Shown here piece after piece: positions 20,353 to 39,084 of a stretch of 60,190 nucleotides of DNA; position 1 is the stretch's first letter; each line of letters opens with the position of its first letter. The DNA lies in contig CALVVS010000002.1 of assembly GCA_944363925.1 (NCBI GenBank), forward strand, positions 1 through 60,190, given 5' to 3'. The stretch is from an uncultured Bacilli bacterium. GTDB taxonomy: Bacteria > Bacillota_I > Bacilli_A > RF39 > UBA660. The position numbers and the translations under genes were made by a program. The notes under the pieces were generated by a model, which saw nothing but the letters and a program-made list of their open reading frames with translations, did no database searches and was not told where the DNA came from.

Positions 20353-22497
20353 CTATATTCTAAGTGGGTTCAAATCTATATCCACATTTATCTTATTCTT
20401 ATAATGACTGCGAATAAATTCCAAACACGTTAAAATTTCCTGAGTTTTTTTAAACTTAATAATAATCTGAACATAATATACATTGTTAATTTTAGGCATA
20501 CTGGATGAAGCCGGACCTAAAATAATACTCTTCAAATTGTTCTTTAAATAATCCGCAATCTTATTTGCCGAAGAAAATACTTCATTATAATCTTTACCAC
20601 TAACTTTAATCAAACATAAATTATAATAAGGCGGATACTTTAAAACCTTTCTTATCTTCATCTCCTCATTATAAAAACTCTCATAATCATTTTCCTTCGC
20701 ATAAACCATACTATAATGATTAATATTAAACCCTTGAATAATAACCTCACCAGCTAGTTTATCCCTTCCAGATCGTCCAGCCACTTGACTTAATAATTCA
20801 TAAGTGCGTTCACTACTCCTAAAATCTGGAATATTTAAAGTCGCATCTCCATTTACCACACAAACTAAAGTAACTAAAGGAAAATCAAGGCCTTTCGCAA
20901 TCATTTGGGTCCCAACTAAAACATTATACTTACCATTTTTAAAATCATCTATAATTCGCTCATGTGCACCTTTATTTCTAGTCGTATCCTGATCCATCCT
21001 AATCACTCTAGCACCCTCAAACTCTTCCTTAATTAATGCCTCCAAACGCTCAGTTCCCATACCTAAAGAATTAATATCCCGGCTGTGACAAATAGGACAC
21101 TCATGTAACTTAGGTGCTTTATAATCGCAATAATGACATTTCATAATATTATGGCTTTTGTGATAAGTAAGCGGAATATCACAGTTTGGACACTTATGAG
21201 TAAACCCGCACTCATGACATGTAATAACAGTCGAATATCCCCTTCTATTAAGTAAAACTAAAACTTGCTCACCCTTACTTAATCTATCACCCATTTTCTC
21301 TTTAAAAATTTCCGAAAAAACTCTATTTCCCTTTTTAAACTCTTCTTTCATATCTACTAAATAAACTTTAGGTAAACTCTTATTCACTCTGTTTTTCATA
21401 ACCAGTAACTCATAAACACCAGCTTTTACCCTTGTATAACTTTCAATACTTGGCGTCGCACTACCTAAAATAACCGGAATATTATAATTTTTTCCTCGTC
21501 TAAGCGCCACATCTATCGCATTATATCTAGGAATATTCTCTTGTTTATATGTCGCCGAATGCTCCTCATCGACAATAATAATACCCAAATTAGTAAACGG
21601 CGCAAAAATCGCACTTCTCGCACCTATTACTATTGAAACTTCCTTTCTTTCAATCTTCCGCCACTCATCATATTTTTCTCCATTACTAAGGCCACTATGT
21701 AAAATTGCCACTATCTTACCAAATCTCTTTTTAAAAATAGAAACCACTTGTGGAGTTAAACTAATCTCTGGAACAAGTAAAATAGCTTCCTTACCTTGCT
21801 TTAAAACTTCCTCAATCAGCTTAATATAAACAAGCGTTTTCCCACTACCTGTAACCCCATGTAATAAATAAGGTTTAAAACAATCAAGCCTCACACTATT
21901 CAAGACCTTTTCCTGTTCTAATGTTAAAACATAATCTCTCTTTTCTAAAATAGTATCATCATCTAAACGATATACTTCTTTTAAAGTTTCCTCCAAAAAG
22001 CCATTATTAATTAATGTCTTAACCGCCGATACAGAAATTTTATTTGCCTCACTTTTTAACACCAATCCATGTTTCTTAACATAATCGAAAACCAATCTCT
22101 GTTTTTCAGACTTAAAATTCCCATCCTTAATAACCCTCAAATGCTTAAGTATTTTTTTATTTATATTATTTTTTTCTCTAGCCTTCAAAGCTCTAGGTAA
22201 CATCGTCTGATAACACATCGTTAAAGGTGCTAATGTTTTTTTACTAATATACTTCCCAAGTTCCAACATTTCTTCATTTAAAACCGGTCTTTCATCAACC
22301 AACTTAATAATATCTTTTACTTCATAATCAAAACCATCATGCTCATATACTCTAATAATAAACCCCTCAATCACCCGCTTACCAAAAGGAATTAAAGCGC
22401 GCATACCAGCCATAGCTTCCATCCCATTAGGTATTCTATAAGTAAAAGTCTTATCAGTACTCTTAGATACAACCTCAACTAATATATCAGCAAACAT
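20353..22497 (-). CDS. priA: Primosomal protein N' (PriA helicase)
   Basis: GVTGSGKT, VDEEH, and Cys-rich zinc fingers (CHECGF..CPNCD, CHYC...CPIC). Confidence 0.93.
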   Translation of the reverse strand: MFADILVEVVSKSTDKTFTYRIPNGMEAMAGMRALIPFGKRVIEGFIIRVYEHDGFDYEVKDIIKLVDERPVLNEEMLELGKYISKKTLAPLTMCYQTMLPRALKAREKNNINKKILKHLRVIKDGNFKSEKQRLVFDYVKKHGLVLKSEANKISVSAVKTLINNGFLEETLKEVYRLDDDTILEKRDYVLTLEQEKVLNSVRLDCFKPYLLHGVTGSGKTLVYIKLIEEVLKQGKEAILLVPEISLTPQVVSIFKKRFGKIVAILHSGLSNGEKYDEWRKIERKEVSIVIGARSAIFAPFTNLGIIIVDEEHSATYKQENIPRYNAIDVALRRGKNYNIPVILGSATPSIESYTRVKAGVYELLVMKNRVNKSLPKVYLVDMKEEFKKGNRVFSEIFKEKMGDRLSKGEQVLVLLNRRGYSTVITCHECGFTHKCPNCDIPLTYHKSHNIMKCHYCDYKAPKLHECPICHSRDINSLGMGTERLEALIKEEFEGARVIRMDQDTTRNKGAHERIIDDFKNGKYNVLVGTQMIAKGLDFPLVTLVCVVNGDATLNIPDFRSSERTYELLSQVAGRSGRDKLAGEVIIQGFNINHYSMVYAKENDYESFYNEEMKIRKVLKYPPYYNLCLIKVSGKDYNEVFSSANKIADYLKNNLKSIILGPASSSMPKINNVYYVQIIIKFKKTQEILTCLEFIRSHYKNKINVDIDLNPLRI

Positions 22498-22615
22498 TAT
22501 ATCACCTCCATAACTTCTTATTCATTGTAATATAAATATTTATACCTTTCAAGCCTTATACAAAAATACAAAACTTTCATATAAAACAAAATACCAAAAT
22601 AATAAAATCTGAAAA

Positions 22616-23572
22616 TTAACTTTCTTCAGATTTTATTTTCTCAATTTCAGTTTCAGATAAACCTGTAAGTTTTGCAATTTCTGATACATCCATTTTAGAT
22701 TTAAGCATATTTTTAGCTATTTGCTTAATTCCTTGACTAATTCCTTGTTCAAGACCTTTTTCAATTCCTTGATTAAATCCTTGTTCAAGACCTTGTTCGA
22801 GACCTTCTTTAATAGCTTCATCTCGATCAGTATTCCTCATAAGTTCGTCCATCTCTTCCTTGTCATATAACCCAATAATTCTAGGGTTTTGATTTAAATC
22901 GTCAATTATTTTAACCATATTTTCTAAATCTTCATCTCCTTTAGCTAACTTCTTAATTTCCTTCTTATCAAGAAGTTGAAATATTACTAAAGCCTTTTCA
23001 ACCTTTGAAAGAGACTCCTTACCTAAATTATAATACTTTTTTAAAGGATTGGCCATATTTATATGAATTCTTCTAAAATTTTCTTCATCTATATATAAAC
23101 CATCGTCACTTTTCATAGAAAAATTTGTAAATAATTGATTACCAAATCTTTTAACAGTATTAAAATTAATCTGTAATACTTCACAGTCTTCTAACTTTCC
23201 TCCAGAATTATATTGCTCAGTAGCTATTTTATGGTGATATAGATTATTTTTTATTCTTTGACTCTTGTTTAAAGACCTATTAGCTTCAATATTTAAAGTT
23301 GTCCCACTTATTTCAGCTAAAATATCCGTAATCTTTTTTCTTTCATAGACATTGCTGACAGGAAGTTCCGTATTAATAAACTTCAAATTATCATAGACAA
23401 ACTTAGGAGAATAATTAGTAACTTCTCCAATAATTAAAGAAAGTAATCTTCGAAATCTTAAATCTTGAATAATTGCTTTAAAAACACAGTCAGCCATAGA
23501 AATCATATATTCTTCATCATTTGGCCTTTTAACAGGTTTATCAGTCTTTTCTAAAAGTGCATTCATTGCCAC
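22616..23572 (-). CDS. Rpn/YhgA-like PD-(D/E)XK recombination-promoting nuclease/putative transposase
   Basis: N-terminal DCVFKAI..., D-x-E core (TDILAEISGTTLNIEANRS). C-terminal GLEQGxxQG repeats followed by an HTH-like tail (IAKLTGLSETEIEKI), as is typical of this family. Confidence 0.65.
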   Translation of the reverse strand: MAMNALLEKTDKPVKRPNDEEYMISMADCVFKAIIQDLRFRRLLSLIIGEVTNYSPKFVYDNLKFINTELPVSNVYERKKITDILAEISGTTLNIEANRSLNKSQRIKNNLYHHKIATEQYNSGGKLEDCEVLQINFNTVKRFGNQLFTNFSMKSDDGLYIDEENFRRIHINMANPLKKYYNLGKESLSKVEKALVIFQLLDKKEIKKLAKGDEDLENMVKIIDDLNQNPRIIGLYDKEEMDELMRNTDRDEAIKEGLEQGLEQGFNQGIEKGLEQGISQGIKQIAKNMLKSKMDVSEIAKLTGLSETEIEKIKSEES

Positions 23573-23754
23573 ACTCCTTTCTAAGAGGTTACCCTCTATA
23601 TATAAACATACGTCGTAGAAATCATATTTCCTTTTTTATCAATGAAAAAAATCAAAAAACTTTTAATTTTCTGATTTTTAGCTTACAACATATGAACTAA
23701 GTTATCCACCATAATCTCTAGTAATTTTCAAACCATTTACTACTATAAACTTAT

Positions 23755-24756
23755 CTAAATGGCTTTATTTGTACAATAATTAGCCTTTTCCACATAATAT
23801 AAATTATTAAATTCTATCGATAACTGATGTGTTTTTAAAAATAAATTTTTCATCTTATCAGTTAAACCTAAAGTACTCGTAATTGAAAGGGCAAAAGGAT
23901 GCTCCGTAAAATTAAGTGATACATCATTGTAATATCCACCACCTTCAACATATTCACCGTACTTATGAGCCACCTCAATATCACCACTTTTAACATAATC
24001 TAAATTATCAGATACTTTCATGTCCTGAATTAACTTCTTCGCATTATCTTTACCAGTCAAATAATACTTATAAACCTCTTTAATATAACCATTACCTAAA
24101 GAAGGCGATAAATTGCCAAAATTATCTGAATAATGAATATCATAACCCAAATTAGCCCAATACTCTTTAACCACACTTCTTCCACCAAGCTCATCCAAAA
24201 GCATTGCATAACCAATATTATCACTGTACCTAATCGTATACTCCAAAATAGTCCGAAGCTTATACTTCGTACCAATACTGTCATTTTGAATAATTCCACT
24301 ACCACCAGTCTTATATTTAGCTAAATAAGTAAGTTCCTTATCCAAATCAAGCTTTCCATCATCAGCCAACTTATAAGCATACAAAACTGCCGGTAATTTA
24401 GTCACACTTGCCGCATAAAGTTCACTATCTTCACCCTTGCCAAAACTATAATCACTCTCTAAATCAGTATACATAAAATTCGCATTAACTCCATTATATA
24501 AACTAATAATCTCATCTCTCTTAGCCAAAAGCTCTTCACTAAAATTCTCTTCCTTTAAAATTCCTTCATCCATACATTTTTCATAAGCTTTTGTACTTTT
24601 CGAAATGTTTTCTAAAGCTAAATCAAACGTTTTTCCTATTTTGTTACTAAAATTTCCATCACCAGCTAAAGTCACATAACAAATAACTCCTATAATAATT
24701 AAAATAAACAAAAACACAAAAGATGATTTTCTAATTTTTCGCTTTTTTCTACTCAT
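23755..24756 (-). CDS. Membrane-anchored class A beta-lactamase-fold serine hydrolase
   Basis: SxxK motif AASVTKL, SDN motif (YSDNIGY), N-terminal TM anchor. Start moved to ATG 24756 (GGTGG RBS). Confidence 0.65.
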   Translation of the reverse strand: MSRKKRKIRKSSFVFLFILIIIGVICYVTLAGDGNFSNKIGKTFDLALENISKSTKAYEKCMDEGILKEENFSEELLAKRDEIISLYNGVNANFMYTDLESDYSFGKGEDSELYAASVTKLPAVLYAYKLADDGKLDLDKELTYLAKYKTGGSGIIQNDSIGTKYKLRTILEYTIRYSDNIGYAMLLDELGGRSVVKEYWANLGYDIHYSDNFGNLSPSLGNGYIKEVYKYYLTGKDNAKKLIQDMKVSDNLDYVKSGDIEVAHKYGEYVEGGGYYNDVSLNFTEHPFALSITSTLGLTDKMKNLFLKTHQLSIEFNNLYYVEKANYCTNKAI

Positions 24757-24812
24757 AAATACCACCATTATAATTATACAAAGAAAAACCAAAAATTTAA
24801 AGTATATTTATT

Positions 24813-26084
24813 TCAATTCTTCAAACATCCAATAGGAACAACATAAACCCCATCTTTACGTTTATAAGCATAATTACCTACACCTATTACTACCATCAAA
24901 AAAGAAGGCTTTTTCATTTTACTAGTATCCAATTTATTATTTAATTTTATCAAATTATTAACACCTTCTTCTATAAGTTTATCGCCACCAAGCTTAATTT
25001 CAATAAGCCCGTAAGAACCATTTCTTAAATGAATAACAGCATCACACTCAAGCGCAGAAGCATCCCTATAATGATATAAAGTACCATTAAGACTTTCAGC
25101 ATACACTCGCAAATCTCTAATACAAAGATTTTCAAATATAAAACCAAATGTATTTAAATCATTAATCAAATCAAGTGGACCTAACCCCAAAGCCGCAACT
25201 GCTATCGAAGGATCAACAAAATATCTAGTATCCGCAGTTCTTATAGCTGTTTTACTTCTTAAATTAGGATTCCAAGCTAACACCTCATCTATAACAAATA
25301 TCTTCTTTAAAGCATTAATATATGATAAAACCGTATCGGTATCTAAAGAAAATGAATCATTATTAACAATATCGTTTCTTAAAGTTAAAATAGAAGCTTG
25401 ACTTCCAATATTTCTAGCATAACTTCTCATCAAATGCTTAACTCTGTTAGCCTCTCTATTTACTCCATCAACTCTTGAAATATCAGAGTTAACCACCGCA
25501 TCATAATAATCAAATGCTTGTTCCAAAGCAATATCTTTTTCCAGCGAAATACTTCTAGGCCAACCACCTCTACAACACAAATAAGCAATATCCTCAAGCG
25601 ATAACTTATTAACTCCATTAATATCTTTACCTTCAAACAAATCTTGCAAACTCACTACTCCAGATGATTCTAATGACTCAAACAAAGTCATTGGACGCAT
25701 AAGCAAAAAAGAAAACCTACCAGTCCCAGTATGCGTTATCAAACTCTTATCAGTAGGTACTGATGAACCAGTCAAAATAAATTGTCCTTCTTCCTTTCTG
25801 TGGTCAACTTCAAATCTAACAGCATCCCAAATTTTAGGCGCAATTTGCCACTCATCTATAAGTCGTGGAACAGCTCCTTCAAGTAATAAACTAGGACTAA
25901 TATCAGCAAGCATCATATTTTGTTCTTTACTATCAGGATTAGCCATATAAAGTATACTCTTAGCTATTTGTTCAGCCGTTGTCGTTTTCCCACACCATTT
26001 AGGGCCCTCAATCAAAACAGCTCCCTTACCTTTTAATTTTCTAATAAGTAAATCATCAACTACCCTTTTTTTATAATTATCCAT
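24813..26084 (-). CDS. AAA ATPase with C-terminal DUF4143/PD-(D/E)XK-like domain (COG1373-type), paralog A
   Basis: Walker A GPKWCGKTTT, Walker B RLIDEW, C-terminal ECDAVIHL...GLIEIKLG (D..ExK-like). About 55% identity by eye to 32304-33569. Confidence 0.75.
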   Translation of the reverse strand: MDNYKKRVVDDLLIRKLKGKGAVLIEGPKWCGKTTTAEQIAKSILYMANPDSKEQNMMLADISPSLLLEGAVPRLIDEWQIAPKIWDAVRFEVDHRKEEGQFILTGSSVPTDKSLITHTGTGRFSFLLMRPMTLFESLESSGVVSLQDLFEGKDINGVNKLSLEDIAYLCCRGGWPRSISLEKDIALEQAFDYYDAVVNSDISRVDGVNREANRVKHLMRSYARNIGSQASILTLRNDIVNNDSFSLDTDTVLSYINALKKIFVIDEVLAWNPNLRSKTAIRTADTRYFVDPSIAVAALGLGPLDLINDLNTFGFIFENLCIRDLRVYAESLNGTLYHYRDASALECDAVIHLRNGSYGLIEIKLGGDKLIEEGVNNLIKLNNKLDTSKMKKPSFLMVVIGVGNYAYKRKDGVYVVPIGCLKN

Positions 26085-26138
26085 TTCATCATCACCTTTT
26101 CCTCATTTTACCATATCATAAATTATTTATCAATGAAT

Positions 26139-26199
26139 ATTCGGTAATTTGTAGATTTTTTATTCGGTAATTTGTAAGAAAATCATTCGGTAATTTGTA
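26139..26199. repeat. Three direct repeats ATTCGGTAATTTGTA at exact 23-bp spacing, upstream of ATPase paralog A
   Basis: Cores at 26139-26153, 26162-26176 and 26185-26199. They lie just upstream of a TTGATA-17nt-TAAAAT minus-strand promoter. Confidence 0.9.
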
Positions 26200-26204
26200 A
26201 ATTT

Positions 26205-27338
26205 TTAAAATTGGTTTTTTAAAGTTATTTTCATTAAATTATAGCAGTTGCCCCACTTTAAATGTCCTCTATAACTACTAATTATTCTTAAACCACTCTC
26301 TAAAGGAATTTTCTCTTCACGAATTAACTTCATTTTCCGTTTAAAATTTTTCTTTGTTAATTTTCGAACTTTCAGTATTACTTTATTATCTATAATACAG
26401 TATCTAAACCCTAAAAAATCAAGTCCTTCTTTACTAACATTAATAATCTTCGTTTTCCTATTCAAACAAAGACGATACTTTAATACCATCTTTTCTATTT
26501 CCTTTAGACAATTCTTTAAATATTCCTTGTCATTAGAAAGTATTACCCCATCATCCATATATCTTATATAATACTTAGATCCCAAATCTTCTTTAATAAA
26601 ATGGTCCAGTTCATTTAAGTAAAATACGGCTAATATCTGACTTGTCATATTTCCAATCGGTAAACCTCGACCTTTTTTATATAAAGGAATTTGCTCAATC
26701 TCTCTAATTTTAATATTCTTTTCTTTATCACTTATATTTAACCCTCGAATTCGCTCTATCTCCATATTCTTTAATTTTTCTATCGTCCTATTAACATACT
26801 CCCTATCAGTTGAATAAATAATTTTTTTAAGTATATCTAAAACCTTTTTATCTTTAATTTTTTTATTAAGTAAATCTAACAAAATCTCATGGTCTATATT
26901 ATAAAAATACTTACTAATATCATACTTAAGTGCATAAATCGTCTCACCTTTTAAATTATTCAAATATTTTTTTATAAGTTTAATTCCAAAATGCGTACCT
27001 TTATTTAACCTTGTCGCAATATTTGTCTCAATCAAACATCTATCCAATACCAGTAATAAAAACTTAGATGCCACCACATGATTAATTAACTTATCATAAA
27101 TATTTTGACTCATAATAATTCTATACTTGGGCTCTTGAATTAAAAATATATTGTACATCCCACCCGCATAATTCTCATTTTCAAAAGTCTTTTTAACCCG
27201 GCTAATATTTATAGAATAAAAATCTTCAAATCTTTTAATCTTATATTTATTTTTAGTATTAACTCTAATTTGTCTCCTATAAACCTTTATAATATCTTCC
27301 ATACTAACACTATCATATAGATTCCGTCTTCTTTTCAT
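26205..27338 (-). CDS. DGR-type reverse transcriptase
   Basis: RT motifs YDISKYFYNIDH, GLPIGNMTSQ (DGR hallmark I/LGxxxSQ), YIRYMDDGVIL (YxDD), LDFLGFRY. Adjacent to avd and the TR. Confidence 0.93.
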   Translation of the reverse strand: MKRRRNLYDSVSMEDIIKVYRRQIRVNTKNKYKIKRFEDFYSINISRVKKTFENENYAGGMYNIFLIQEPKYRIIMSQNIYDKLINHVVASKFLLLVLDRCLIETNIATRLNKGTHFGIKLIKKYLNNLKGETIYALKYDISKYFYNIDHEILLDLLNKKIKDKKVLDILKKIIYSTDREYVNRTIEKLKNMEIERIRGLNISDKEKNIKIREIEQIPLYKKGRGLPIGNMTSQILAVFYLNELDHFIKEDLGSKYYIRYMDDGVILSNDKEYLKNCLKEIEKMVLKYRLCLNRKTKIINVSKEGLDFLGFRYCIIDNKVILKVRKLTKKNFKRKMKLIREEKIPLESGLRIISSYRGHLKWGNCYNLMKITLKNQF

Positions 27339-27663
27339 TTCTCATCCATCCATAAATCTGTTTTAAAATATCTAGTAAATGTAAAGAGACCTTTTGATAT
27401 TTTTTATAAGAAATATACTTTTTATCAACTGCCGTCTTCAAATAAAAATCAATCATCCTAATATTAACAACTATTCTCGTCTGATAATATGCCCGCTTAT
27501 CCTTAAACTCACTAGCCATATATGTAAACTCTAAAATATCATACATCGTTTGACTAATTTTGTCCCTAAGAACTTTTTCTTTAGCCGGAAAATTAGTAAT
27601 AATCTTATCTAAATATAAAATTGTTTTTTTTATATTAATCACTACCCTAAAATTATCTACCAT
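27313..27663 (-). CDS. avd: Avd-like accessory variability determinant (four-helix-bundle protein)
   Basis: 116 aa, basic, helical. Its position directly upstream of the RT, overlapping it, is typical of DGR Avd. Confidence 0.75.
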   Translation of the reverse strand: MVDNFRVVINIKKTILYLDKIITNFPAKEKVLRDKISQTMYDILEFTYMASEFKDKRAYYQTRIVVNIRMIDFYLKTAVDKKYISYKKYQKVSLHLLDILKQIYGWMRNEKKTESI

Positions 27664-28067
27664 AAAATTTCCTCAACTTTATCCAATACATCCATAATTT
27701 TTGAATTATTTTTTAAAACTCTAAGCCTGTCATACACTTTATTAATTCTATCTTCCAAATTCAAATCATCTGGGACAAACTTATCATAATTGTTAAAATT
27801 AAACTTCTTACGTGTTATATCATCATCTTCAATAATTACATAATTTATTTTAAAACTCTTAAACTTTGAAATCACCTTATCATAACTGTTAATAGGAAAA
27901 CCAACTCTTTTTATACCATTAATATCTTTAATCTTATAACTAAATAAGTTATTTAAAACATATACATCCTCGCCATAACACTCATAGAAAATACCCACCT
28001 TTATTAAAACTACATATTTTGGATATTTATTTTTATATAAATTATATTTATCAATTATTTTTACCAT
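27657..28067 (-). CDS. Stand-alone MutS domain I (mismatch-binding domain)-like protein, DGR accessory ORF
   Basis: KYPKYVVLIKVGIFYECYGEDVYVLNNLF...IKRVGFPINSYDKVISKF..FKINYVIIE aligns by eye to E. coli MutS [22 protein letters not shown]...IPMAGIPYHAVENYLAKL...VAICEQ. The Phe-x-Glu mismatch-contact motif is included. 7-nt overlap with avd. Confidence 0.7.
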   Translation of the reverse strand: MVKIIDKYNLYKNKYPKYVVLIKVGIFYECYGEDVYVLNNLFSYKIKDINGIKRVGFPINSYDKVISKFKSFKINYVIIEDDDITRKKFNFNNYDKFVPDDLNLEDRINKVYDRLRVLKNNSKIMDVLDKVEEILW

Positions 28068-28084
28068 ACAACCTCCAACAAAAA

Positions 28085-28125
28085 AGCAGTATCAAACAAA
28101 GGGATAATCCCTAATTGGTACTGCT
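28085..28125 (-). terminator. Terminator-like hairpin between the TR region and the MutS-I-like ORF
   Basis: Minus strand reads AGCAGTA...TACTGCT followed by TTTTTT, immediately before the GGAGG RBS of 28067. Confidence 0.5.
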
Positions 28126-28244
28126 AAAAATATAGTTTTTCTCATATCATATCTCTTTCAAATATTATAGACCATTAACTAATCACTAGGACATATTTAA
28201 TAATCAATTTTACTAAAAATATCTCTGACTATATTTAATATTTA

Positions 28245-28279
28245 GTTAGGAAACAATTTGTCGATGTAGTTTTCCTAAC
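28245..28279 (-). other. 9-bp stem-loop downstream (minus strand) of the TR
   Basis: GTTAGGAAA / TTTCCTAAC arms with a 17-nt loop. Confidence 0.5.
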
Positions 28280-28361
28280 CTGGGACAATACTTATTCTCT
28301 AATCTTTTCATTATGACCATATTAGTTCATAACCCATAGTGTTCTAGAGAGTTCCAGACAG

Positions 28362-28465
28362 CCGGACGGACCGCATTGGTATTGTTCGCATTGTTGTTGT
28401 TGAAGTTGCCGTTGTTGTTGTTGACATTGAACACGTTGTTAGAGTTGCCGGAATTAGGCGACAAC
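28362..28465 (-). repeat. DGR template repeat (TR)
   Basis: 104-nt gapless match to 28677-28780. All 17 mismatches are at TR adenines (coding strand). The N-rich (AAC/AAT) reading frame means the tracked ORF 28327-28521 is the TR, not a gene. Confidence 0.93.
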
Positions 28466-28507
28466 CCAAACAAATCAATCATATTTAGTATTGCCCCATA
28501 ACTGTCA

Positions 28508-28575
28508 CCGAAAAATTTCATTTTTCGGCCTTTAGCGAGGCAGACGCCCCGCTACCAAACTCCTAACGGAGTTTG
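28508..28575 (-). other. Three consecutive stem-loops between the target stop codon and the TR (putative 5' part of the DGR RNA)
   Basis: Hairpins at 28508-28528 (CCGAAAAAT/ATTTTTCGG), 28535-28552 (closes with a G.U pair only on the minus-strand RNA) and 28556-28575 (8-bp stem CAAACTCC/GGAGTTTG, 4-nt loop). This is a GC-rich patch in an AT-rich genome. Confidence 0.5.
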
Positions 28576-28602
28576 CCAAAATGATATACCTTATTACACA
28601 AC

Positions 28603-29505
28603 TTATCCCAAAGTATATGGGTTATTTTGGGAACCATTTCCACCAGTTATTTTGACCTCAGAGCTTAGATAGACGACCGGACGGACCGCAAAGGTAAAGT
28701 ACGCATCGTTGTAGCTGAAGCTGCCGTTGTAGTCGCTGACATCGAACACGTAGCTAGAGGTGCCGGAATAAGGCGACAACGTCCACCACCAGTTACTCGA
28801 ATAAAACATCCATGTGGTTCCTTTACATTGTGCAGAATTCCATATTTGCTGCACTGTACCACAGCTACTTTTATTACTATTACTTCTTACATATTCACTT
28901 GCCGTAACCAATGCTACTTTTCCGTTCCATTTGCTTGCTTTTTCATTTTTTATGGTATTTGCCATATTATTATCATTAGATGCTACTGCACCAATACTCC
29001 AATCTTTAGCTACTATTTGACTTTGAGCTGTACTATTTAATCTATTATAATATGTGCTATTCAAATATGTATTCAAACTTGCTGGTCTGGCCCAATTATT
29101 ACTATTAGAACTATCCCACACTCGATTTCCTATACTATTTATTCTCATTATCTTTATTGTTCCATCACACTCTATTGATACTATGCGCCAACCGGCTTTT
29201 TCATTATTGAAAGTTATATAGTTATTTGGATTTTTTCCTGTAAAGAAATACCTGCACTCATATGGGTCTTTTTCTAACCCCGCATCTTCGATTATTTGCT
29301 CACCTGCTGGTGGTTCTTTTGTACACTCAGTATAAAGTTCGTCTATAGCTCCTTTAACTGTCGTACTCGAAAGACCGCTTTCTGTATTATCATAACTTAC
29401 CTCATTTGAAGGAAATGTAACTGCCGCATATACTAATGTACCCATACATAAAATTACACCTACTATAAAACCAATTATATTTTTCTTTATATAATCTTTT
29501 TTCAT
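28603..29505 (-). CDS. DGR target (variable) protein; membrane-anchored/secreted, C-terminal VR-bearing ligand-binding domain (C-type-lectin-like fold inferred)
   Basis: N-terminal TM/signal segment. VR encodes LSPYSGTSSYVFDVSDYNGSFSYNDAYFTFAVRP near the C-terminus. The WWWTLSP...FAVRPV pattern is as in CLec/DUF1566-type DGR targets. Confidence 0.88.
   Translation of the reverse strand: MKKDYIKKNIIGFIVGVILCMGTLVYAAVTFPSNEVSYDNTESGLSSTTVKGAIDELYTECTKEPPAGEQIIEDAGLEKDPYECRYFFTGKNPNNYITFNNEKAGWRIVSIECDGTIKIMRINSIGNRVWDSSNSNNWARPASLNTYLNSTYYNRLNSTAQSQIVAKDWSIGAVASNDNNMANTIKNEKASKWNGKVALVTASEYVRSNSNKSSCGTVQQIWNSAQCKGTTWMFYSSNWWWTLSPYSGTSSYVFDVSDYNGSFSYNDAYFTFAVRPVVYLSSEVKITGGNGSQNNPYTLG
28677..28780 (-). 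repeat. DGR variable repeat (VR) with GC-rich IMH-like 3' end
   Basis: See the TR. The shared 3' GC-rich element (coding strand GCGGTCCGTCCGG) is followed by flanks that diverge between VR and TR. Confidence 0.93.
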
Positions 29506-29515
29506 GATACCCCTC

Positions 29516-29596
29516 CTAAATAAAATAGACTAAAAGAAGTGCTAAAACTAAACCTAACAAATAACTTTTCACAAACTCTTTTACTTTTCCTTTCAT
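29516..29596 (-). CDS. Possible 26-aa hydrophobic upstream peptide
   Basis: My translation: MKGKVKEFVKSYLLGLVLALLLVYFI. Its stop TAG overlaps the GGAGGGG RBS of the DGR target gene. No homology evidence. Confidence 0.25.
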   Translation of the reverse strand: MKGKVKEFVKSYLLGLVLALLLVYFI

Positions 29597-29771
29597 ACTA
29601 TTACACATCCTTCCTTCATAAAACCAAATTCATATACTTTTAAACAAATCGTTAAAATATAAGGTACAGCTAACTACAAATATTTATATAAAACAAAGCC
29701 AATTTATCTAACCACTACCATACTTCTTCATTTTTTTCACTCTCCTTATCTTATAATCACAGTATATCACA

Positions 29772-29919
29772 ATATAATCTTGCAGTAAATAGTTCGTGTG
29801 ATTATTTTGCAGTAAATAGTATCATACTTGACGAAGGGGGATAGTTAAATATGGTATTAAAGTTTGATAATCTCAAAGATTTACTAATATTTAATATTAA
29901 ATATTATCGGTACCAAAAT
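29772..29919. repeat. 148-bp direct repeat, left copy, flanking the IS
   Basis: Matches 31889-32036 with 4 mismatches (29853, 29862, 29886, 29913). Contains the XRE promoter/operator region and the first 23 codons. Confidence 0.92.
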
Positions 29920-29937
29920 CCGGAGTTTGACAGTTGA
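29851..29937 (+). pseudogene. Truncated 5' copy of the XRE regulator gene, running into the IS end
   Basis: MVLKFDNLKDLLIFNIKYYRYQN then IS-derived codons and a stop. Duplicate of 31968 onward. Confidence 0.7.
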
Positions 29938-31888
29938 GTGAAATTAATATAGATAGTTTGCCTTTATAGAATAAGGGTTTTATTTTGTCAAGTTTTTGGC
30001 ATTTTATGGTTGTATAATTTTGTATAATATGATAAAAGGTTATTAAGGTAGTGATGTTATGTTTATTAAAAAATGTAAATATTCAAATGGAAAAACTTTT
30101 TTATCAATTGTTCATGGTTATAAACAAGATGGTAAAGTTAAACATTTAACTATTAAAAAATTGGGCTACTTGGAAGATATTTTATTAGAACATGATGATA
30201 TAGATGCTTTTTTAAAAGAACAATTATTAAATTGTCAAAATGAATTTGATGTTGACAAAGGTATTTTTATTAAAAATGAAAAAATGGACTTTTCTAAACG
30301 ATATATATTTAATCTAGGTTACTCTATTTTAAAACAAATATACAATGAACTTGGTTTGAAAGAATTCTTTAAAGATAAACAGAAGAAACTAAAAATGAAT
30401 TATAATCTAAACTCTATTTTTGAACTCCTAATTTATTCTAGAATTTTATTTCCAGCTAGTAAAAATGAAACTTATAATAACAAAGATATATTTTTTGATA
30501 ATTTTGATTTTTCTTTAAAAGACTTATATCGTTCACTAGATTATTTTAATGGTTTCAAAGATGAACTTCAAACTCTACTTTGGAATAATACTAAAGATAA
30601 ATATAAAAGAGATGCTTCTACTTCTTACTATGACTGTACCAATTATTATTTTGAAATTTCATATAATGATGAAGATTTAATTGATGAAAATGGTAACATT
30701 TTAGAAAAAGGTTACAGAAAAAAAGGACCTTCTAAAGAACACAGACCTGAACCTATAATCGGTCTTGGCTTATTAATGGATAAAACTGGTATTCCACTTT
30801 CTTATAATTTGTTCCCGGGCAATCAAAGTGAAAAAATCACTTTAAGACCCACTTTAAAAAATACTAAGTCTAACTTTGGTATTGATAAAACTATTGTTGT
30901 GGCTGATAGAGGCCTAAATACTTCTGATAATATATTTTTCTTAGCTGGTAAAAATAATGACACATCAAACAAAGATGGTTATGTATATGGTCAAAATGTC
31001 CTTTCTTCTGACAAAGAATTTAAAGATTGGGTTTTAAATCAAGATGGATATATTACTGATATATTTACTGAAGATAATGAAGAAATACATTTTAAACATA
31101 AATCTAGAATTTATGCGAAAACTATTCAAATTGAAAGAAATGGTAAAAGGACAAATAAATATACTGTTTACCAAAAGCAAATGGTTTATTTTTCACAAAA
31201 ATATGCGGATAAACAAAAACGTGAACGTGATTTAGCTATAGCTAAAGCCAAAGATTTAATTAATAACCCAGGCAAATATACTAGAGCCACTTCTGTTGGA
31301 GCTGCCGGTTTTATAAACAATCTTTCCTTTGATAAAAATACTGGTGAGGTTATAGATAAAAATTTATCTTTAAACATCGATAAAATTAAAGATTTAGAAA
31401 GATTTGATGGTTATTATTCTATTGTTACTAGTGAAAAAGAACTATCAGACAAAGAAATAAGGGATATTTATAGTGGTTTATGGAAGATTGAAGAAACTTT
31501 TAAAATTACTAAAAGCGAACTTAAAACTAGACCTATTTATGTTTGGACTAAAGAACATATTGAAGCTCACTTTTTAACCTGTTTTATTTCTTTAGTTATA
31601 CTTAGATTACTTCAACAAAGAACAAATTACAAATATTCTACTAAAGAGCTTATCAAATCATTAAAAACTTTAAATGTTAGATATCAAAACGCAAACTATT
31701 ATCAACTATTAAACTATTCAAAACAAATTGATGATATTTCTCGTTGTTTTAATATTGATTTTTCAAATTCATTAATATCTAAGAAAAAAATTTCAAATTT
31801 ATTAAAATAATTTATATTATACAACCTATTCAAAATGAGTTAAGCCTTGTTTTTATTAGCTTAACTCTTTTTTACTGTCAAACTCAGG
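29920..31888 (+). mobile_element. IS1634-family (IS4-related) insertion sequence, about 1.97 kb
   Basis: Terminal inverted repeats CCGGAGTTTGACAGT (29920-29934) and ACTGTCAAACTCAGG (31874-31888), 14/15 complementary. Single DDE transposase ORF and long flanking direct repeats. Confidence 0.8.
30059..31810 (+). CDS. IS1634-family DDE transposase
   Basis: N-terminus MFIKKCKYSNGKTFLSIVHGYKQDGKVKH.TIKKLGYL is typical of IS1634 transposases. 583 aa; C-terminal Y..LW.IEE.F...K motif (YSGLWKIEETFKITKSEL). Confidence 0.8.
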   Translation: MFIKKCKYSNGKTFLSIVHGYKQDGKVKHLTIKKLGYLEDILLEHDDIDAFLKEQLLNCQNEFDVDKGIFIKNEKMDFSKRYIFNLGYSILKQIYNELGLKEFFKDKQKKLKMNYNLNSIFELLIYSRILFPASKNETYNNKDIFFDNFDFSLKDLYRSLDYFNGFKDELQTLLWNNTKDKYKRDASTSYYDCTNYYFEISYNDEDLIDENGNILEKGYRKKGPSKEHRPEPIIGLGLLMDKTGIPLSYNLFPGNQSEKITLRPTLKNTKSNFGIDKTIVVADRGLNTSDNIFFLAGKNNDTSNKDGYVYGQNVLSSDKEFKDWVLNQDGYITDIFTEDNEEIHFKHKSRIYAKTIQIERNGKRTNKYTVYQKQMVYFSQKYADKQKRERDLAIAKAKDLINNPGKYTRATSVGAAGFINNLSFDKNTGEVIDKNLSLNIDKIKDLERFDGYYSIVTSEKELSDKEIRDIYSGLWKIEETFKITKSELKTRPIYVWTKEHIEAHFLTCFISLVILRLLQQRTNYKYSTKELIKSLKTLNVRYQNANYYQLLNYSKQIDDISRCFNIDFSNSLISKKKISNLLK

Positions 31889-32036
31889 ATATAATCTTGC
31901 AGTAAATAGTTCGTGTGATTATTTTGCAGTAAATAGTATCATACTTGACGAAGGGGGATAGTTAAATATGATATTAAAATTTGATAATCTCAAAGATTTA
32001 CTGATATTTAATATTAAATATTATCGGTATCAAAAT
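31889..32036. repeat. 148-bp direct repeat, right copy
   Basis: See 29772-29919. Confidence 0.92.
31898..31937 (+). promoter_or_regulatory. Two direct 13-bp repeats TGCAGTAAATAGT (candidate operator) upstream of the XRE gene
   Basis: 31898-31910 and 31925-31937. The same pair occurs in the left copy at 29781-29793 and 29808-29820. Confidence 0.5.
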
Positions 32037-32261
32037 AACCTATCACAAGAAAAACTAGCTGAACTATGTTCACTATCATCTAGATATATAACAGATATAG
32101 AAAGAGGTTTGCACTGTCCGACAATTCCAAAATTAGAAATAATAGCTAAAGCTTTAAATATAAAGCCATATATCTTATTTCAAAATCCCCCAAGAAGCCA
32201 AGAAATAATTAACAAAATGCAAAGTACTAGACAATATAATCAAAGAAGAAAAAAACGTTAA
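31968..32261 (+). CDS. XRE-family helix-turn-helix transcriptional regulator
   Basis: HTH_3 pattern LSQEKLAELCSLSSRYITDIERG...P....L..IAKAL. Confidence 0.8.
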   Translation: MILKFDNLKDLLIFNIKYYRYQNNLSQEKLAELCSLSSRYITDIERGLHCPTIPKLEIIAKALNIKPYILFQNPPRSQEIINKMQSTRQYNQRRKKR

Positions 32262-32288
32262 ATTCATCTACACGAACTTAACGTTTTT
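32251..32288. terminator. Bidirectional terminator hairpin between the XRE gene and ATPase paralog B
   Basis: AAAAACGTTAA ... TTAACGTTTTT. A related sequence is seen again at about 34192-34222. Confidence 0.6.
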
Positions 32289-32303
32289 ATAATAAATATA
32301 TTC

Positions 32304-33569
32304 CTAATTTTTTAAACAAGTTATGGGCACAACATATACCCCATCTTCTCTTCTATATGCGTATTTAGTAGCCGTAAGTATCATCAAAAATGATGGTTTA
32401 TTCATTTCACTAGTATCTACAACATTAGAAAACTTTATCAAATTTTTAGCAGCCAATTCAATAGAATCATTGTTTCCTAACTTAATCTCGGCAGCACCCC
32501 ATCTGCCATCTTTTAGATGTACAATAGCATCACATTCTAACCCACTCTTATCGCGATAAAAAAACACATCACCATCTAAACTTTGAGCATAAACTTTTAA
32601 ATCTCTTAAACACAAAGCTTCAAAAATAAAGCCAAATGTTTTAAAATCTTTAAGTAAATCTTTATCAGTTGCCCTAAGTGCAGCTACTGCTATTGAAGGG
32701 TCAATAAAACATCTTTTTGCACTAGTTCTTATATCCGTTTTACTCCTAAGTTTAGGACACCACGCTTCCACATCATCAATTACATATAATTTAGATAAAG
32801 CATTTAAATAATCGACAATAGTCTTTTCAGAAATGGTAGAATCATTATAAAATGTATCATCTTTAATAGTAGCTAAACTCGCCGTTGTGCATATATTTCT
32901 AGATAAACTTCTAATAACCGTGCGAAGTCTATTAGGATTTCTCACAGTCCCATCAACAGTCTTAATATCATTTATAATTAAAGAATCTAAATAATCTCGT
33001 GGCACAATTAAAGCATCTCCCTTATTCAAATCGAGAGAACTTGGCCAGCCACCACGCGCACATAAATAAGCAATATCCTCAAGTTCTTTATTAGACACAC
33101 CTTTAATATCAATAACACTATCAAAAAGTTCACTTAAAGAAACACTGCCAGTAGAATCATTAGATTCATATAAACTCATAGGCCTCATAAGCAATCTGAT
33201 AATTCTACCAGTTCCACTGTGCATAGGTTCATCGTCTCTCGGAGTAATAGAACCAGTTAAAATATATTGATTTTTCAAACCAGTATTATCAACATCATAC
33301 CTAATTGCATCCCAAAGCATTGGAGCATCCTGCCACTCATCTATAAGTCTTGGCTTTTCACCTTCCAAAAGTAAATCAGGTCTCATATTTGCAATTTCTA
33401 AATTATTTTCTCTAGTTCTTGGATTTTGAAGTTCTAATACACTTTTAGCATATTGTTTAGCCGTTGTTGATTTACCACACCACTTAGGTCCAATAATTAA
33501 AACTGCACCATATATTTTCATCCTTTTTTCTAAAATATCATCAAGTAATCTAGGCATATATTTTTTCAT
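32304..33569 (-). CDS. AAA ATPase with DUF4143/PD-(D/E)XK-like C-terminal domain, paralog B
   Basis: GPKWCGKSTT, RLIDEW, ECDAIVHL...AAEIKLG. Confidence 0.75.
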   Translation of the reverse strand: MKKYMPRLLDDILEKRMKIYGAVLIIGPKWCGKSTTAKQYAKSVLELQNPRTRENNLEIANMRPDLLLEGEKPRLIDEWQDAPMLWDAIRYDVDNTGLKNQYILTGSITPRDDEPMHSGTGRIIRLLMRPMSLYESNDSTGSVSLSELFDSVIDIKGVSNKELEDIAYLCARGGWPSSLDLNKGDALIVPRDYLDSLIINDIKTVDGTVRNPNRLRTVIRSLSRNICTTASLATIKDDTFYNDSTISEKTIVDYLNALSKLYVIDDVEAWCPKLRSKTDIRTSAKRCFIDPSIAVAALRATDKDLLKDFKTFGFIFEALCLRDLKVYAQSLDGDVFFYRDKSGLECDAIVHLKDGRWGAAEIKLGNNDSIELAAKNLIKFSNVVDTSEMNKPSFLMILTATKYAYRREDGVYVVPITCLKN

Positions 33570-33621
33570 ATTAAACCTTCTTTCTAATTAATTATATCAC
33601 ATTTATTAAAAAAATAAACTC

Positions 33622-33684
33622 TACTTCCGAATTTGGCACTATTTTACTTCCGAATTTGGCATCATTTTACTTCTGAATTTGGCA
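33622..33684. repeat. Three direct repeats TACTTC(C/T)GAATTTGGCA at exact 23-bp spacing, upstream of ATPase paralog B
   Basis: 33622-33638, 33645-33661, 33668-33684. Same number, spacing and distance to the start codon as the paralog A repeats, but a different sequence. Confidence 0.9.
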
Positions 33685-33774
33685 AAGTCAAAAAAAGAAG
33701 TGCCACTATTTATTTAACACCTCACTATGACTACCAATATTTACTACAATTAATAATTTATTAGAATTTTATAA

Positions 33775-33978
33775 TTAATCATCAGATAATAACGCCTTTT
33801 TTAAATCTTCTACATTATCAAAACTTTTATACTCCTCAGGATACTTTTTAATATAAACAAGTTCTTTAGCAGCCTTTCCAAGTTCATCCTCAGTAAAATA
33901 TTGATATAATTCAAAATTCTCTTTTTCCTGAGCCCCTTTATCAATTTGAACATTTATAGAAGTTGTTAAATTAGACAT
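33775..33978 (-). pseudogene. Internally deleted RelB/DinJ-like antitoxin remnant
   Basis: Shares the N-terminus (SNLTTSINVQID versus ASLTSAINVNVD) and the C-terminus (ALLSDD) with 34498-34785 but lacks the RHH core. A YafQ 3' remnant (..GSHSEV) follows at about 33721-33750. Confidence 0.5.
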
Positions 33979-34228
33979 AATATCATCCCCTCATAACAAA
34001 TATATCAGTTTTCATATAATTTATCAAATATTTTATATAAAAATAATATGATTTTTAATATGTTCTATTATATAAAAATTCAAATTTTTTATCCACTCTA
34101 TAAATATTAATAAATAATTTAAATCTTATTTCGCATAATTTAATAAAACAAAATTCACATATTTAACAAAACGATAAAATATAATCAAAAAAGTTAAATT
34201 CAATTATACGAACTTAACTATAATAAAA

Positions 34229-34512
34229 CTATTTAAATAAATCACTATGACTACCAGTATTTACCATTACCAATATTAAATCTTTTTCATAATATTGATA
34301 AATCAATAACCAATCAGTTTCTATATGGCACTCACCACAATTTTGATAATATTTATCATCTTTCAATATATGGTTTTTATATTTTTAATCTAAATCTTCT
34401 TTTAAAGCCAACTTATCAACAATATCTAATAACTTTTCTATACTTTTTCTTTGTTTTAAAACCTTCTTTAAACTTTTTTTATTTTTTTGAATAAAAATCA
34501 ATCATCAGACAA
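34229..34512 (-). pseudogene. yafQ: YafQ/RelE-family toxin pseudogene (frameshift plus in-frame stop)
   Basis: My translation: ..KKSLKKVLKQRKSIEKLLDIVDKLALKEDLD*KYKNHILKDDKYYQNCGECHIETDWLLIYQYYEKDLILVMVNTGSHSDLFK. It has the YafQ hallmarks CHIEPDWLLIY and TGSHSDLF. The ATG overlapping the relB end is out of frame across a poly-A run. Confidence 0.65.
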
Positions 34513-34785
34513 TAAAGCTTCCTTTAAAGATTGTCGATTATCATAGCAAGGATACATATTAGGGTTTTCTATAATTTTTCTTGCCTCATCTAAAGCTCTC
34601 AATGTGTCTTTACTAGGCTTAGGATTAGTTATTTCAAAAGGTATACCATCTTTTTTTATAATTTGTACCAAAAACATATTAATAGCCGTACTCATATTAA
34701 GCCCTAAATCTTTTAAAATAGCAGTTGCCTCTTCTTTAACCTTAGTATCAACATTTACATTAATTGCACTTGTCAAACTAGCCAT
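34498..34785 (-). CDS. relB: RelB/DinJ-family type II antitoxin
   Basis: INVNVDTKVKEEATAILKDLGLNMSTAINMFLVQII ribbon-helix-helix pattern. Confidence 0.8.
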   Translation of the reverse strand: MASLTSAINVNVDTKVKEEATAILKDLGLNMSTAINMFLVQIIKKDGIPFEITNPKPSKDTLRALDEARKIIENPNMYPCYDNRQSLKEALLSDD

Positions 34786-34942
34786 ATAATCACTTCCTTT
34801 CGAAAATAATATAACATATCATCACGATATTGTTAACTAGATAACTACATAATATAAATATAATAACTACAAATATTATATGAAAAAAATTAAAATTATA
34901 TACAAAAAACATCTACATATTTTAAAAATAAAAAAAGAAACC

Positions 34943-36202: not shown

Positions 36203-36208
36203 ATCCTC

Positions 36209-37201: not shown

Positions 37202-37260
37202 ATCCTCATCTCCAAGTAGTACAATTATACCATTTTTTCATACCATTTGTACATATAGTT

Positions 37261-37752
37261 TTAAAACATTTCTATAACTTCATCTAGCTTATCAATAACC
37301 GGAAACCCTTTTCCATCCATATCTAAATCAAATCTAATAGAAATGCCTCCATCTTTATCCCATCTTCTCAAATTTTCTGGATAATCATCAATCAAAATAG
37401 AATCTTGAACCTTAACCATTTTATTCTTATCAACTCGCTTAGGCACCGGAATTATTGTCACATCATCTAAATAATTTCTTATTAATTCAATTTTAAGTTC
37501 AGCTTCTTTCGTTGAAACAACATGCGTCAAAATAAAAACCTTAAATTTACCACAATTAATAATTTCCTCAATACATTTAAACGCATCATTTATCTCAGAA
37601 CTTTGTCTCAAAACCTCACACCAATCCAAATTTTTAAAAAACTGATAATAACTCTCATAATCTTTGGTAATACCCTCTGCATCTGCTAACTTATAAGAAA
37701 CTTCAATCGAATTATAAATAACTCCATCAAAATCGATATACAAATTCTTCAT
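37261..37752 (-). CDS. HAD-superfamily hydrolase (5'(3')-deoxyribonucleotidase-like)
   Basis: N-terminal DFDGV (DxD) motif; size about 160 aa. Confidence 0.5.
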   Translation of the reverse strand: MKNLYIDFDGVIYNSIEVSYKLADAEGITKDYESYYQFFKNLDWCEVLRQSSEINDAFKCIEEIINCGKFKVFILTHVVSTKEAELKIELIRNYLDDVTIIPVPKRVDKNKMVKVQDSILIDDYPENLRRWDKDGGISIRFDLDMDGKGFPVIDKLDEVIEMF

Positions 37753-37789
37753 AAAACCACCCCTTTATAGAAAAAAAGGGAATTATCCC

Positions 37790-38314: not shown

Positions 38315-38325
38315 TTTTATCCCTC

Positions 38326-38532
38326 CTACTTATTAATTAAATCTTTTAATCTCTTAACATCTGATGAACTCATCTCTGATTCATGATGTCTTCTTCTTCT
38401 TGATTGATTACTCTTATGAGTTAACTTGTGATTTTTCATAGCTGGTTGAAATTTAATCGAACCACTTTTTCTAACCTTTAAAACCTTAGATAAACCTTTA
38501 TGTGATTTCGCTTTAATCTTAGCCACAAACAT
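38326..38532 (-). CDS. rpmI: 50S ribosomal protein L35
   Basis: Small basic protein between infC and rplT; K.KSHKG...H.L..K pattern. Confidence 0.85.
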
Positions 38533-38537
38533 TCCTC

Positions 38538-39080: not shown

Positions 39081-39084
39081 TAAA

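Follow-up and report, generated by a model that had tools for sequence, protein, structure and literature searches.

Evidence for a complete chromosomal diversity-generating retroelement with avd and a MutS-domain-I-like gene, probably active recently, in an uncultured Bacilli bacterium

We analysed a stretch of 60,190 nt from an uncultured Bacilli bacterium (contig CALVVS010000002.1 of assembly GCA_944363925.1, positions 1 to 60,190), hereafter the window. Between positions 26205 and 29505, on the minus strand, lie four genes and a pair of repeats that we read as a diversity-generating retroelement (DGR). In the direction of transcription these are a target gene that carries the variable repeat (VR) at its 3′ end, the template repeat (TR) within the DNA for a structured RNA with a conserved spacer (Sp), a gene for a MutS-domain-I-like protein (MSL), avd and a reverse transcriptase (RT) gene. 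Each repeat ends in a GC-rich element of the kind named for the initiation of mutagenic homing (IMH in the VR, IMH* in the TR). The features are as follows.

28603-29505, minus strand: target (variable-protein) gene, 300 amino acids; Pfam DUF6273, E 1.2e-10, residues 126-281
28677-28780, minus strand: VR, 104 nt; target codons 243-276 of 300
28677-28689, minus strand: IMH-like GC-rich element GCGGTCCGTCCGG, at the 3′ end of the VR
28556-28575, 28534-28553 and 28507-28529, minus strand: three hairpins, H1, H2 (GC-rich, 4-nt loop) and H3, past the target stop codon and ahead of the DGR RNA
28487-28498, minus strand: 5′ arm of a long-range helix, UGGGGCAAUACU, 21 nt upstream of the TR; from covariation
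28362-28465, minus strand: TR, 104 nt; 35 adenines; 17 AAY codons (AAC or AAT) and one ACC codon in the VR frame
28362-28374, minus strand: IMH*-like GC-rich element, at the 3′ end of the TR
28296-28351, minus strand: Sp core, the conserved spacer of the DGR RNA
28345-28351, minus strand: 5′ strand of helix P1, CUCUCUA; from RNAalifold
28311-28332, minus strand: 9-bp hairpin with a flipped-out base; from RNAalifold
28302-28310, minus strand: A-rich single strand within the Sp core
28296-28301, minus strand: 3′ strand of helix P1, UAGAGA; from RNAalifold
28281-28292, minus strand: 3′ arm of the long-range helix, AGUAUUGUCCCA, just past the Sp core; from covariation
28245-28280, minus strand: stem-loop GGUUAGGAAA...UUUCCUAAC, in both the minimum free energy and the centroid fold, followed by an A-rich tract
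28080-28125, minus strand: terminator-like hairpin AGCAGUA...UACUGC with six U, from folding, just upstream of the MSL ribosome-binding site
27657-28067, minus strand: MSL, 136 amino acids, isoelectric point (pI) 9.1; Pfam MutS_I, E 1.1e-7, over the cut-off
27313-27663, minus strand: avd, 116 amino acids, basic, pI 9.7; Pfam bAvd
26205-27338, minus strand: DGR reverse transcriptase, 377 amino acids, with IGNMTSQ and YMDD; Pfam RVT_1, E 2.6e-18

The two repeats align without a gap over 104 nt at an offset of 315 nt, and all 17 mismatches between them (17/17) fall on adenines of the TR on the minus strand, which are T on the plus strand. That is, 17 of the 35 TR adenines are substituted in the VR (nine A to T, seven A to G and one A to C) and none of the 69 other positions differs; the hypergeometric probability that all 17 mismatches would land on the 35 adenines is 3.3e-10. 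The homology is sharply bounded on both sides, with a mismatch at 28360/28361 and unrelated 5′ flanks, and GCGGTCCGTCCGG forms a common 3′ end of TR and VR beyond which the sequences diverge. A first-pass annotation of this DNA had reported the gapless alignment, the confinement of 17 mismatches to 35 adenines and the shared GC-rich end with diverging flanks. Recomputation from the sequence reproduced these observations, and the translations that it quoted for the two repeat frames are present in the list of open reading frames (ORFs). In the frame of the VR, the TR adenines occupy codon positions 1 or 2 and never position 3. As they all lie in AAY or ACC codons, adenine mutagenesis cannot make a stop codon; the coding capacity of the VR is approximately 15^17 x 4, or 3.9e20, peptides. 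The TR has a GC content of 47%, compared with 31% for the window. When the TR skeleton was run over the two strands of the window with its adenines left free, no further VR was found. A 64-residue Asn-rich ORF runs across the TR (28327-28521, minus strand) and mirrors the VR frame; it is most likely not a gene.

DGR reverse transcriptases carry (I/L)GxxxSQ where those of group II introns have QGxxxSP, together with YxDD. The RT of the window has IGNMTSQ and YMDD, both of which had been picked out at first reading and are found in the ORF translation. Its best relative in the PDB is the RT of phage BPP-1 (bRT, 8ub7; E 3.9e-33, 118 bits, in two stretches over nearly the full length), against E 1e-9 or worse and at most 41 bits for group II and retron-type enzymes. 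Moreover, the RT scores below the NCBIfam cut-offs for group II (94 of 300 bits), Drt3a (47 of 200) and retron St85 (33 of 235) and far under that for Drt5, and PADLOC returned generic RT matches only. Its grouping with the DGR RT of BPP-1 is supported at the level of sequence. Avd scores 47 bits against Pfam bAvd, over the cut-off of 40; no sequence match to it was found in the PDB. The avd gene overlaps the stop of MSL by 7 nt and the start of RT by 26 nt. All three ORFs are intact and on the minus strand, and their mutual overlap suggests that MSL, avd and RT form one operon.

Relatives of this RT number more than 514 in a species-representative genome collection, and the best 80 were fetched as loci, which bear L numbers below. 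They come mostly from metagenome-assembled genomes labelled uncultured Bacilli, Tenericutes, Erysipelotrichaceae, CAG:822 and CAG:956. A strict detector, which allowed no non-adenine mismatch in 50 nt and required at least five adenine mismatches, found an adenine-only TR/VR pair at 34 of the 80 loci; many of the other contigs end near the TR. The commonest order resolved among the 80 is target(VR)-TR-MSL-avd-RT, with a minority of avd-RT-MSL, and MSL adjoins avd in most of them. Some of the genomes hold two or more cassettes; pairs were seen for L045 and L059 (CAJLEF010000003.1), L012 and L050 (CAG:822) and L002 and L063 (BRZ_CL bin38), sometimes about 18 kb apart. At L025:2522-4914, one TR is accompanied by two VRs in tandem target genes.

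The comparison of cassettes also bears on the direction of transfer. The TR of the window is 84% identical to those of L036 and L074, and 14 of the differences are at sites with no adenine in either TR. At all 14 of these sites (14/14) each VR, whether of the window, L036 or L074, has the base of its own TR. Between the VRs of the window and of L036/L074, 23 of the 32-33 adenine sites that they share are different, and the shared non-adenine sites are all identical. The same rule holds in the other cassette pairs compared, where it is partly a consequence of the strict detection criterion; the TR/VR pair of the window was not chosen by that detector. Since the VR follows its own TR at the 14 sites, information has passed from the TR into the VR of this lineage since the cassettes parted, and no non-adenine differences between TR and VR have accumulated since that transfer. 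Exact copies of the RT were found only in the window's own contig (L001, 0 differences). As there is no second copy of the target in the collections searched, we infer rather than observe current activity; the cassette was probably active recently.

The target protein carries the VR in the C-terminal strands of its DUF6273 domain. Its AlphaFold model (mean predicted local distance difference test score, pLDDT, 85.7, and above 90 for residues ~80-300) comprises a low-confidence hydrophobic helix at the N-terminus (residues 4-21), joined by a linker to a compact domain. Among solved structures, the top match in a Foldseek search is 9qa6, the DUF6273 domain of the Thomasclavelia ramosa IgA peptidase (E 1.6e-6, 283 columns), followed by many C-type lectin domains, all of them weak matches; in the viral library the best structural matches are phage DUF6273 proteins (E 5.6e-10). 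Published work on gut phages treats DUF6273 as a C-type-lectin-like domain that DGRs diversify, and places the VR at the C-terminal end of the domain (PMC10743442, PMC11792537). F-box proteins appeared as candidate relatives in weak PDB profile matches only and were judged to be chance. More than 1,800 homologues of the target were found, each of about 300 residues. In an alignment of 120 homologues the mean entropy is 3.32 bits at the 18 adenine codons, 1.32 at other VR residues and 0.95 in the rest of the protein, and the hypervariability of the adenine codons is significant (Mann-Whitney P 1.3e-12). The closest solved fold belongs to a gut IgA peptidase, of which it forms the N-terminal domain, and this gives a hint that the variable target proteins bind host or microbial surface ligands.

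At first reading the target had been called a cell-anchored surface protein. That it is bacterial stands, and its hydrophobic N-terminus marks it as a predicted exported protein. The anchoring is plausible, with the N-terminal helix as a putative membrane anchor, but the helix could instead be a signal peptide cleaved between VYA and A, a site that is conserved in the target family. No lipobox or LPXTG-type sorting motif was seen in the target translation, for which no formal scan was made. Just past the hydrophobic helix, more than 100 homologues share the conserved motif VYAA.YFPS..V.YDNTESGL.STNVQGAIDELY (target residues ~25-62, ~29320-29433), which may be a processing or docking element. 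Upstream of the gene, an ORF for 26 hydrophobic residues (MKGKVKEFVKSYLLGLVLALLLVYFI; 29516-29596, minus strand) ends 10 nt before the target ATG, with a GGAGGGG ribosome-binding site on its 3′ side.

MSL aligns with residues 16-79 of Taq MutS (E 4e-4), with GDFYECFGEDA set against GIFYECYGEDV. Its AlphaFold model (pLDDT 85.9) was compared with the PDB by Foldseek, and all 44 matches at E<=0.001 (44/44) are domain I of MutS/MSH proteins, with root-mean-square deviations of 1.2-2.4 A over most of the 71-82-column matches. Among 63 MSL sequences from the related loci, G25 and the wedge phenylalanine F27 are invariant and K23, D34 and a G-F-P motif nearly so. The glutamate of the F-x-E motif (E29) is kept in 21 of the 63, including the copy in the window. 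The part of MSL that aligns with MutS spans residues ~4-69, and the remainder is modelled as two short helices. MSL lacks domains II-V of MutS (connector, core, clamp and ATPase); it is therefore not a MutS and cannot signal repair. The attributes of the published MSL family are all found here, namely a small protein homologous to MutS domain I, a place in a cassette with avd and no HRDC gene. Of 372 DGRs, 16 were reported to have a member of that family, in every case together with avd; one of these is a Legionella DGR (Wu et al. 2017, PMC5758913).

The RNA that would carry the TR is also recognisable. A 12-bp helix, UGGGGCAAUACU:AGUAUUGUCCCA, encloses the TR. Across 13 distinct loci, 98.1% of the cells in the helix alignment are paired, and in 8 of the 12 pairs both partners have changed. 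Column shuffling (500 replicates) never attained any of the observed values, and registers slid along the sequence pair in 43-56% of cells. Two loci without the upstream segment, L002 and L003, offer off-register complements only (9-10 of 11). The Sp core is 82-92% identical (blastn) in loci whose RTs are only ~58-62% identical, and 42 of its columns are invariant in 19 sequences. RNAalifold places P1 (CUCU with AGAG) around a hairpin, P2, with one compensatory change. In the RNA of BPP-1 a TR:Sp template:primer duplex stands beside an 11-bp avd:Sp duplex termed cPRT Stop, after which come a stem-loop and adenosines (Handa et al.). For 207 DGRs, Bacillota among them, the same authors predicted comparable duplexes, of 13 bp on average, as well as 9-bp stem-loops that have flipped-out bases. 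The 12-bp helix found here matches cPRT Stop, its 5′ arm being the counterpart of the avd strand and its 3′ arm that of the Sp strand. By analogy with BPP-1, P1 would be the template:primer duplex and an adenosine near 28296 the primer, and the 12-bp helix probably acts as the cDNA stop. The RNA elements found here corroborate function and are not new.

Other hairpins flank this core. The stem-loop at 28245-28280 varies in sequence among the relatives, and hairpin-capable stretches are visible by eye in some of them. The terminator-like hairpin at 28080-28125 is also present in L002, with an altered inner stem-loop. It is probably the 3′ end of the TR RNA, with MSL, avd and RT expressed by read-through or from a separate promoter. 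On the upstream side, the region of H1 to H3 is more stable as folded DNA than shuffled sequence (z -4.99; 0 of 200 shuffles equally stable), and the positions of the hairpins recur in the relatives with different sequences. They are candidates for a terminator, for the GC-rich inverted repeat (a potential cruciform) that can lie downstream of an IMH, or for both; a GC-rich repeat downstream of the IMH occurs in a third of DGRs. The window contains no Rfam family at gathering thresholds. Promoter consensus matches number 34 against a shuffled expectation of 24.4 (standard deviation 4.7), which is only a modest excess, and no promoter was assigned.

The cassette lies in a chromosomal setting. 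The window holds ffh, tex, a dinB-like gene, miaA, queA, ruvAB, fmt, priA, tig, infC, infB and nusA, and no phage gene (capsid, tail, terminase or integrase) was seen among the window ORFs scanned. The cassette is placed between tig and a beta-lactamase-like gene, as it is in L002, L082 and L086. The first reading had taken the host for a sporulating low-GC Firmicute, and this view gains support from the GC content of 31% and from GerA, GerAC and spore-permease genes at 52373-56081. These make up a complete germinant-receptor set, so the host, a gut bacterium, is a spore former, though many of the relatives are labelled Tenericutes or Mycoplasma.

Taken together, we read 26205-29505 as a complete chromosomal DGR of the class with Avd and MSL, probably active recently, and put the probability of this at about 0.9. 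In silico, the features of DGRs found are adenine-only TR/VR divergence, the RT motifs, a VR at the 3′ end of its gene, IMH and IMH* elements, Avd, and an RNA duplex with a stem-loop. The first-pass claim of a complete DGR is thereby upheld, with the TR/VR pair, RT, Avd, MutS_I-like protein and DUF6273 target all in place. Were the cassette to work as its parts suggest, an RNA would be transcribed that contains the TR with its conserved upstream and downstream (Sp) segments. The 12-bp helix between these segments would loop out the TR and probably set the point at which cDNA synthesis stops, and a short stretch of pairing of the Sp core with the sequence immediately 3′ of the TR would probably bring an Sp adenosine into place as primer. 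A complex of RT and Avd would then copy the TR into cDNA, with misincorporation opposite adenines only, and the resulting cDNA, directed by the GC-rich end that both repeats have in common (IMH), would take the place of the VR at the target gene's 3′ end. The 17 AAY codons and the single ACC codon would allow as many as ~4e20 protein variants, none with a stop codon. The outcome would be a diversified ligand-binding face on the C-type-lectin-like DUF6273 domain of an exported protein. The steps of cis-priming and IMH-directed homing are modelled on BPP-1.

Several observations weigh against this reading. Among relatives at the same chromosomal site, L002 (RT 96% identical) keeps TR-MSL-avd-RT without target or VR, and L082 and L083 (4199-6128, ~26205-27471 of the window) keep only the RT and a remnant of avd; other RTs of at least 90% identity belong to cassettes that have decayed or to contigs broken at the TR. 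An insertion sequence (IS) lies ~550 bp upstream of the target gene. With decayed same-site relatives and an IS nearby, the locus is unstable. The target is the sole member of its 90% cluster, with its nearest homologue 77% identical, and a scan of JGI metagenomes with the VR skeleton (adenines as N) returned no VR variants. With regard to the RNA, at 5 of the 13 loci the 5′ arm was selected for the best complementarity within a 170-nt interval, which favours pairing; all five of these arms are in the same register and start with GGG, and the distance between the starts of the two arms is 191-207 nt. Covariation in P1 is almost nil because the Sp core is nearly invariant. Lastly, Avd scores 51.6 bits against NCBIfam DivGenRetAVD, under its cut-off of 80. 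In part these points would fit a fossil, that is, a complete cassette that no longer homes and in which the TR/VR pattern is a relic: its same-site sisters have lost parts, the IS upstream of the target is bracketed by a 148-bp duplication, and VR variants were found neither in the 90% cluster, nor among the homologues, nor in the metagenomes. However, drift after inactivation should leave non-adenine differences, and there are none at the 69 such positions even though the TR has changed at 14 of them since the sisters split, which counts against a fossil. The ORFs, the catalytic YMDD and the RNA elements are moreover all intact. We consider it improbable that the cassette is a fossil.

An origin in an unrecognised prophage, with the target as its receptor-binding or tail-fibre protein, would account for a domain that is a common DGR target in gut phages (PMC10743442, PMC11792537) and for best viral-library matches that are phage DUF6273 proteins. 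Against this, the ORFs scanned include no phage genes, the flanks are housekeeping genes (ffh, tex, ruvAB, priA, tig, infC, infB, nusA), related genomes have the cassette at the same chromosomal site, and the target has only 300 residues with an N-terminal signal or anchor helix. A phage-borne element is very improbable, and the first-pass statement that the target is bacterial and not a phage tail fibre is sustained by this setting. It might also be argued that the window holds no DGR at all and that an unrelated RT of group II intron, retron or defence type is by chance the neighbour of an ordinary duplication shaped by selection or gene conversion. The sub-threshold RT matches to group II, Drt3a and retron models and the candidate defence genes (PDC-S01) that flank the cassette would be in keeping with this. 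Yet the restriction of the mismatches to adenines is not (P 3.3e-10), and the scores for defence, retron and group II classes are far under their cut-offs, with bRT as the best relative. Avd and DGR-type RNA elements are present, and the same RT clade has adenine-only TR/VR pairs at 34 of 80 loci. This alternative is already effectively refuted.

The surroundings of the cassette offer further observations. At L002:4348-5010 (~28327-28492 of the window) a truncated TnpB/IS605-OrfB-like ORF is fused in frame to the TR, and the helix has lost its 5′ arm; L002 probably represents a dead cassette whose TR has been orphaned. With no VR and its target replaced, it does not serve as a strain comparison. 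In L082 and L083 a RelB/YafQ toxin-antitoxin pair stands where MSL, the TR, the target and the remainder of avd would be, which leaves an orphan DGR RT. Over 21224-39158 the identity forms a mosaic: L082 matches at 87% towards tig and at 97.9% from mid-avd onward, and L002 at 94.5% in the cassette with flanks at 86.6% and 78%. This mosaic identity (L002, L082, L086) suggests recombination or exchange at the locus.

The IS upstream of the target is of the DDE_Tnp_1 type (~29920-31888) and is bracketed by a direct duplication of 148 bp (97%; 29772-29919 and 31889-32036). The duplicated segment holds the start of an XRE-type helix-turn-helix gene (31968-32261) and two TTGCAGTAAATAGT repeats (29774-29793 and 29801-29820). 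Without the IS, this gene would be divergent from the target operon, of which it may be a regulator. Two AAA_14/DUF4143 ATPase genes (24813-26084 and 32304-33569) flank the cassette; their products are paralogues with 55% identity, and both are full-length matches to PADLOC PDC-S01, a candidate defence family (E 1e-54 and 2e-52). The place of the ATPase at 24813-26084 next to the RT is conserved in L082 and L086. Between the RT stop and the start of this ATPase gene lie three direct copies of ATTCGGTAATTTGTA with 23-nt spacing (26139-26199), which look like operator or iteron sites.

The conceptual gain from this cassette is small, as DGRs with Avd and MSL and DUF6273 targets have already been described. 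Its value is that of a compact (3.3 kb) and fully intact example from a very large, almost unstudied clade, in which the 80 best RT relatives come mostly from uncultured gut Bacilli. All RNA elements known from BPP-1 can be located in it, and it is therefore a good candidate for reconstitution. For MSL, we found no test of function in the literature. In Bacteroides, deletion of host mutS raises VR mutagenesis 5-10-fold, in an all-or-nothing manner; this was measured in a DGR without a reported Msl, and the role of Msl itself lay outside that study (bioRxiv 10.1101/2024.11.15.621889). On account of this effect one may speculate that MSL, with its invariant wedge phenylalanine, its MutS domain I fold and no ATPase, is a stand-alone mismatch-binding module that binds the densely mismatched cDNA:VR heteroduplex and either shields it from host MutS or biases its resolution to the cDNA strand. 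We rate this idea as somewhat unlikely. If true, it would account for the escape of some cellular DGRs from the all-or-nothing reversal by mismatch repair seen in Bacteroides, and a cassette as compact as this one would allow a direct test. Since Bacteroides retrohoming is suppressed 5-10-fold by host MutS, the cassette is a good system in which to ask what MSL does.

Compared with the DGR of BPP-1 (mtd-avd-TR-brt), the cassette shares an RT whose closest solved relative is bRT, Avd, adenine-only mutagenesis, an AAY-rich TR and a GC-rich IMH-like end. It also shares the RNA layout, with an upstream:downstream duplex around the TR and then a stem-loop and adenosines, and a putative C-type-lectin-like variable domain on the target. 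It differs in that BPP-1 is phage-borne whereas this cassette is chromosomal, in the place of the TR (between avd and RT in BPP-1, ahead of the accessory genes here), in the upstream arm of the helix (inside avd in BPP-1, intergenic here) and in the extra MSL gene. Moreover, the target of BPP-1 is the tail-fibre tip Mtd and that of the window a small exported DUF6273 protein.

The domain itself links the cassette to other systems. The DGRs of Faecalibacterium prophages and of "tentaclin" phages (PMC11792537, PMC10743442) have targets of the DUF6273 family, with the VR at the C-terminus of the domain in the prophage targets, and the tentaclin paper calls the domain C-type-lectin-like. Those targets are receptor-binding or decoration proteins of phages, whereas the protein of the window is chromosomally encoded with a signal or anchor helix. 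The N-terminal DUF6273 domain of the T. ramosa IgA peptidase (9qa6, PMC12402451) is the best solved match and likewise belongs to a secreted protein of a gut Firmicute. Unlike the target here, it is fused to an M64 peptidase and not diversified by a DGR; the paper leaves the function of the domain undefined (PMC12402451).

The closest counterparts by gene content are DGRs with MSL. Those of "Architecture D" (Wu et al. 2017, PMC5758913), which include that of Legionella pneumophila Corby, likewise have a MutS-domain-I-like gene without HRDC beside avd, a cellular setting and an exported or surface target. The MSL of the window is basic (pI 9.1) in contrast to a published mean of 7.2, its target is a DUF6273 protein whereas LdtA is of the DUF1566/CLec2 class, and its host is a Gram-positive spore former. 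The Bfr, Bth and Bun DGRs of Bacteroides (bioRxiv 10.1101/2024.11.15.621889) are also chromosomal, in gut commensals, and have Avd and Msl. Their TRs have 30-45 adenines (35 in the window) and their variable protein is at the cell surface, but their targets are Type V pilus tip proteins and their hosts belong to another phylum. The first-pass annotation was right that the gene order differs from that of BPP-1. The order is nevertheless not novel, since cassettes with MSL have been described and it is the commonest among the relatives. With its departures from BPP-1 already catalogued, the cassette is a well-preserved example of a described class.

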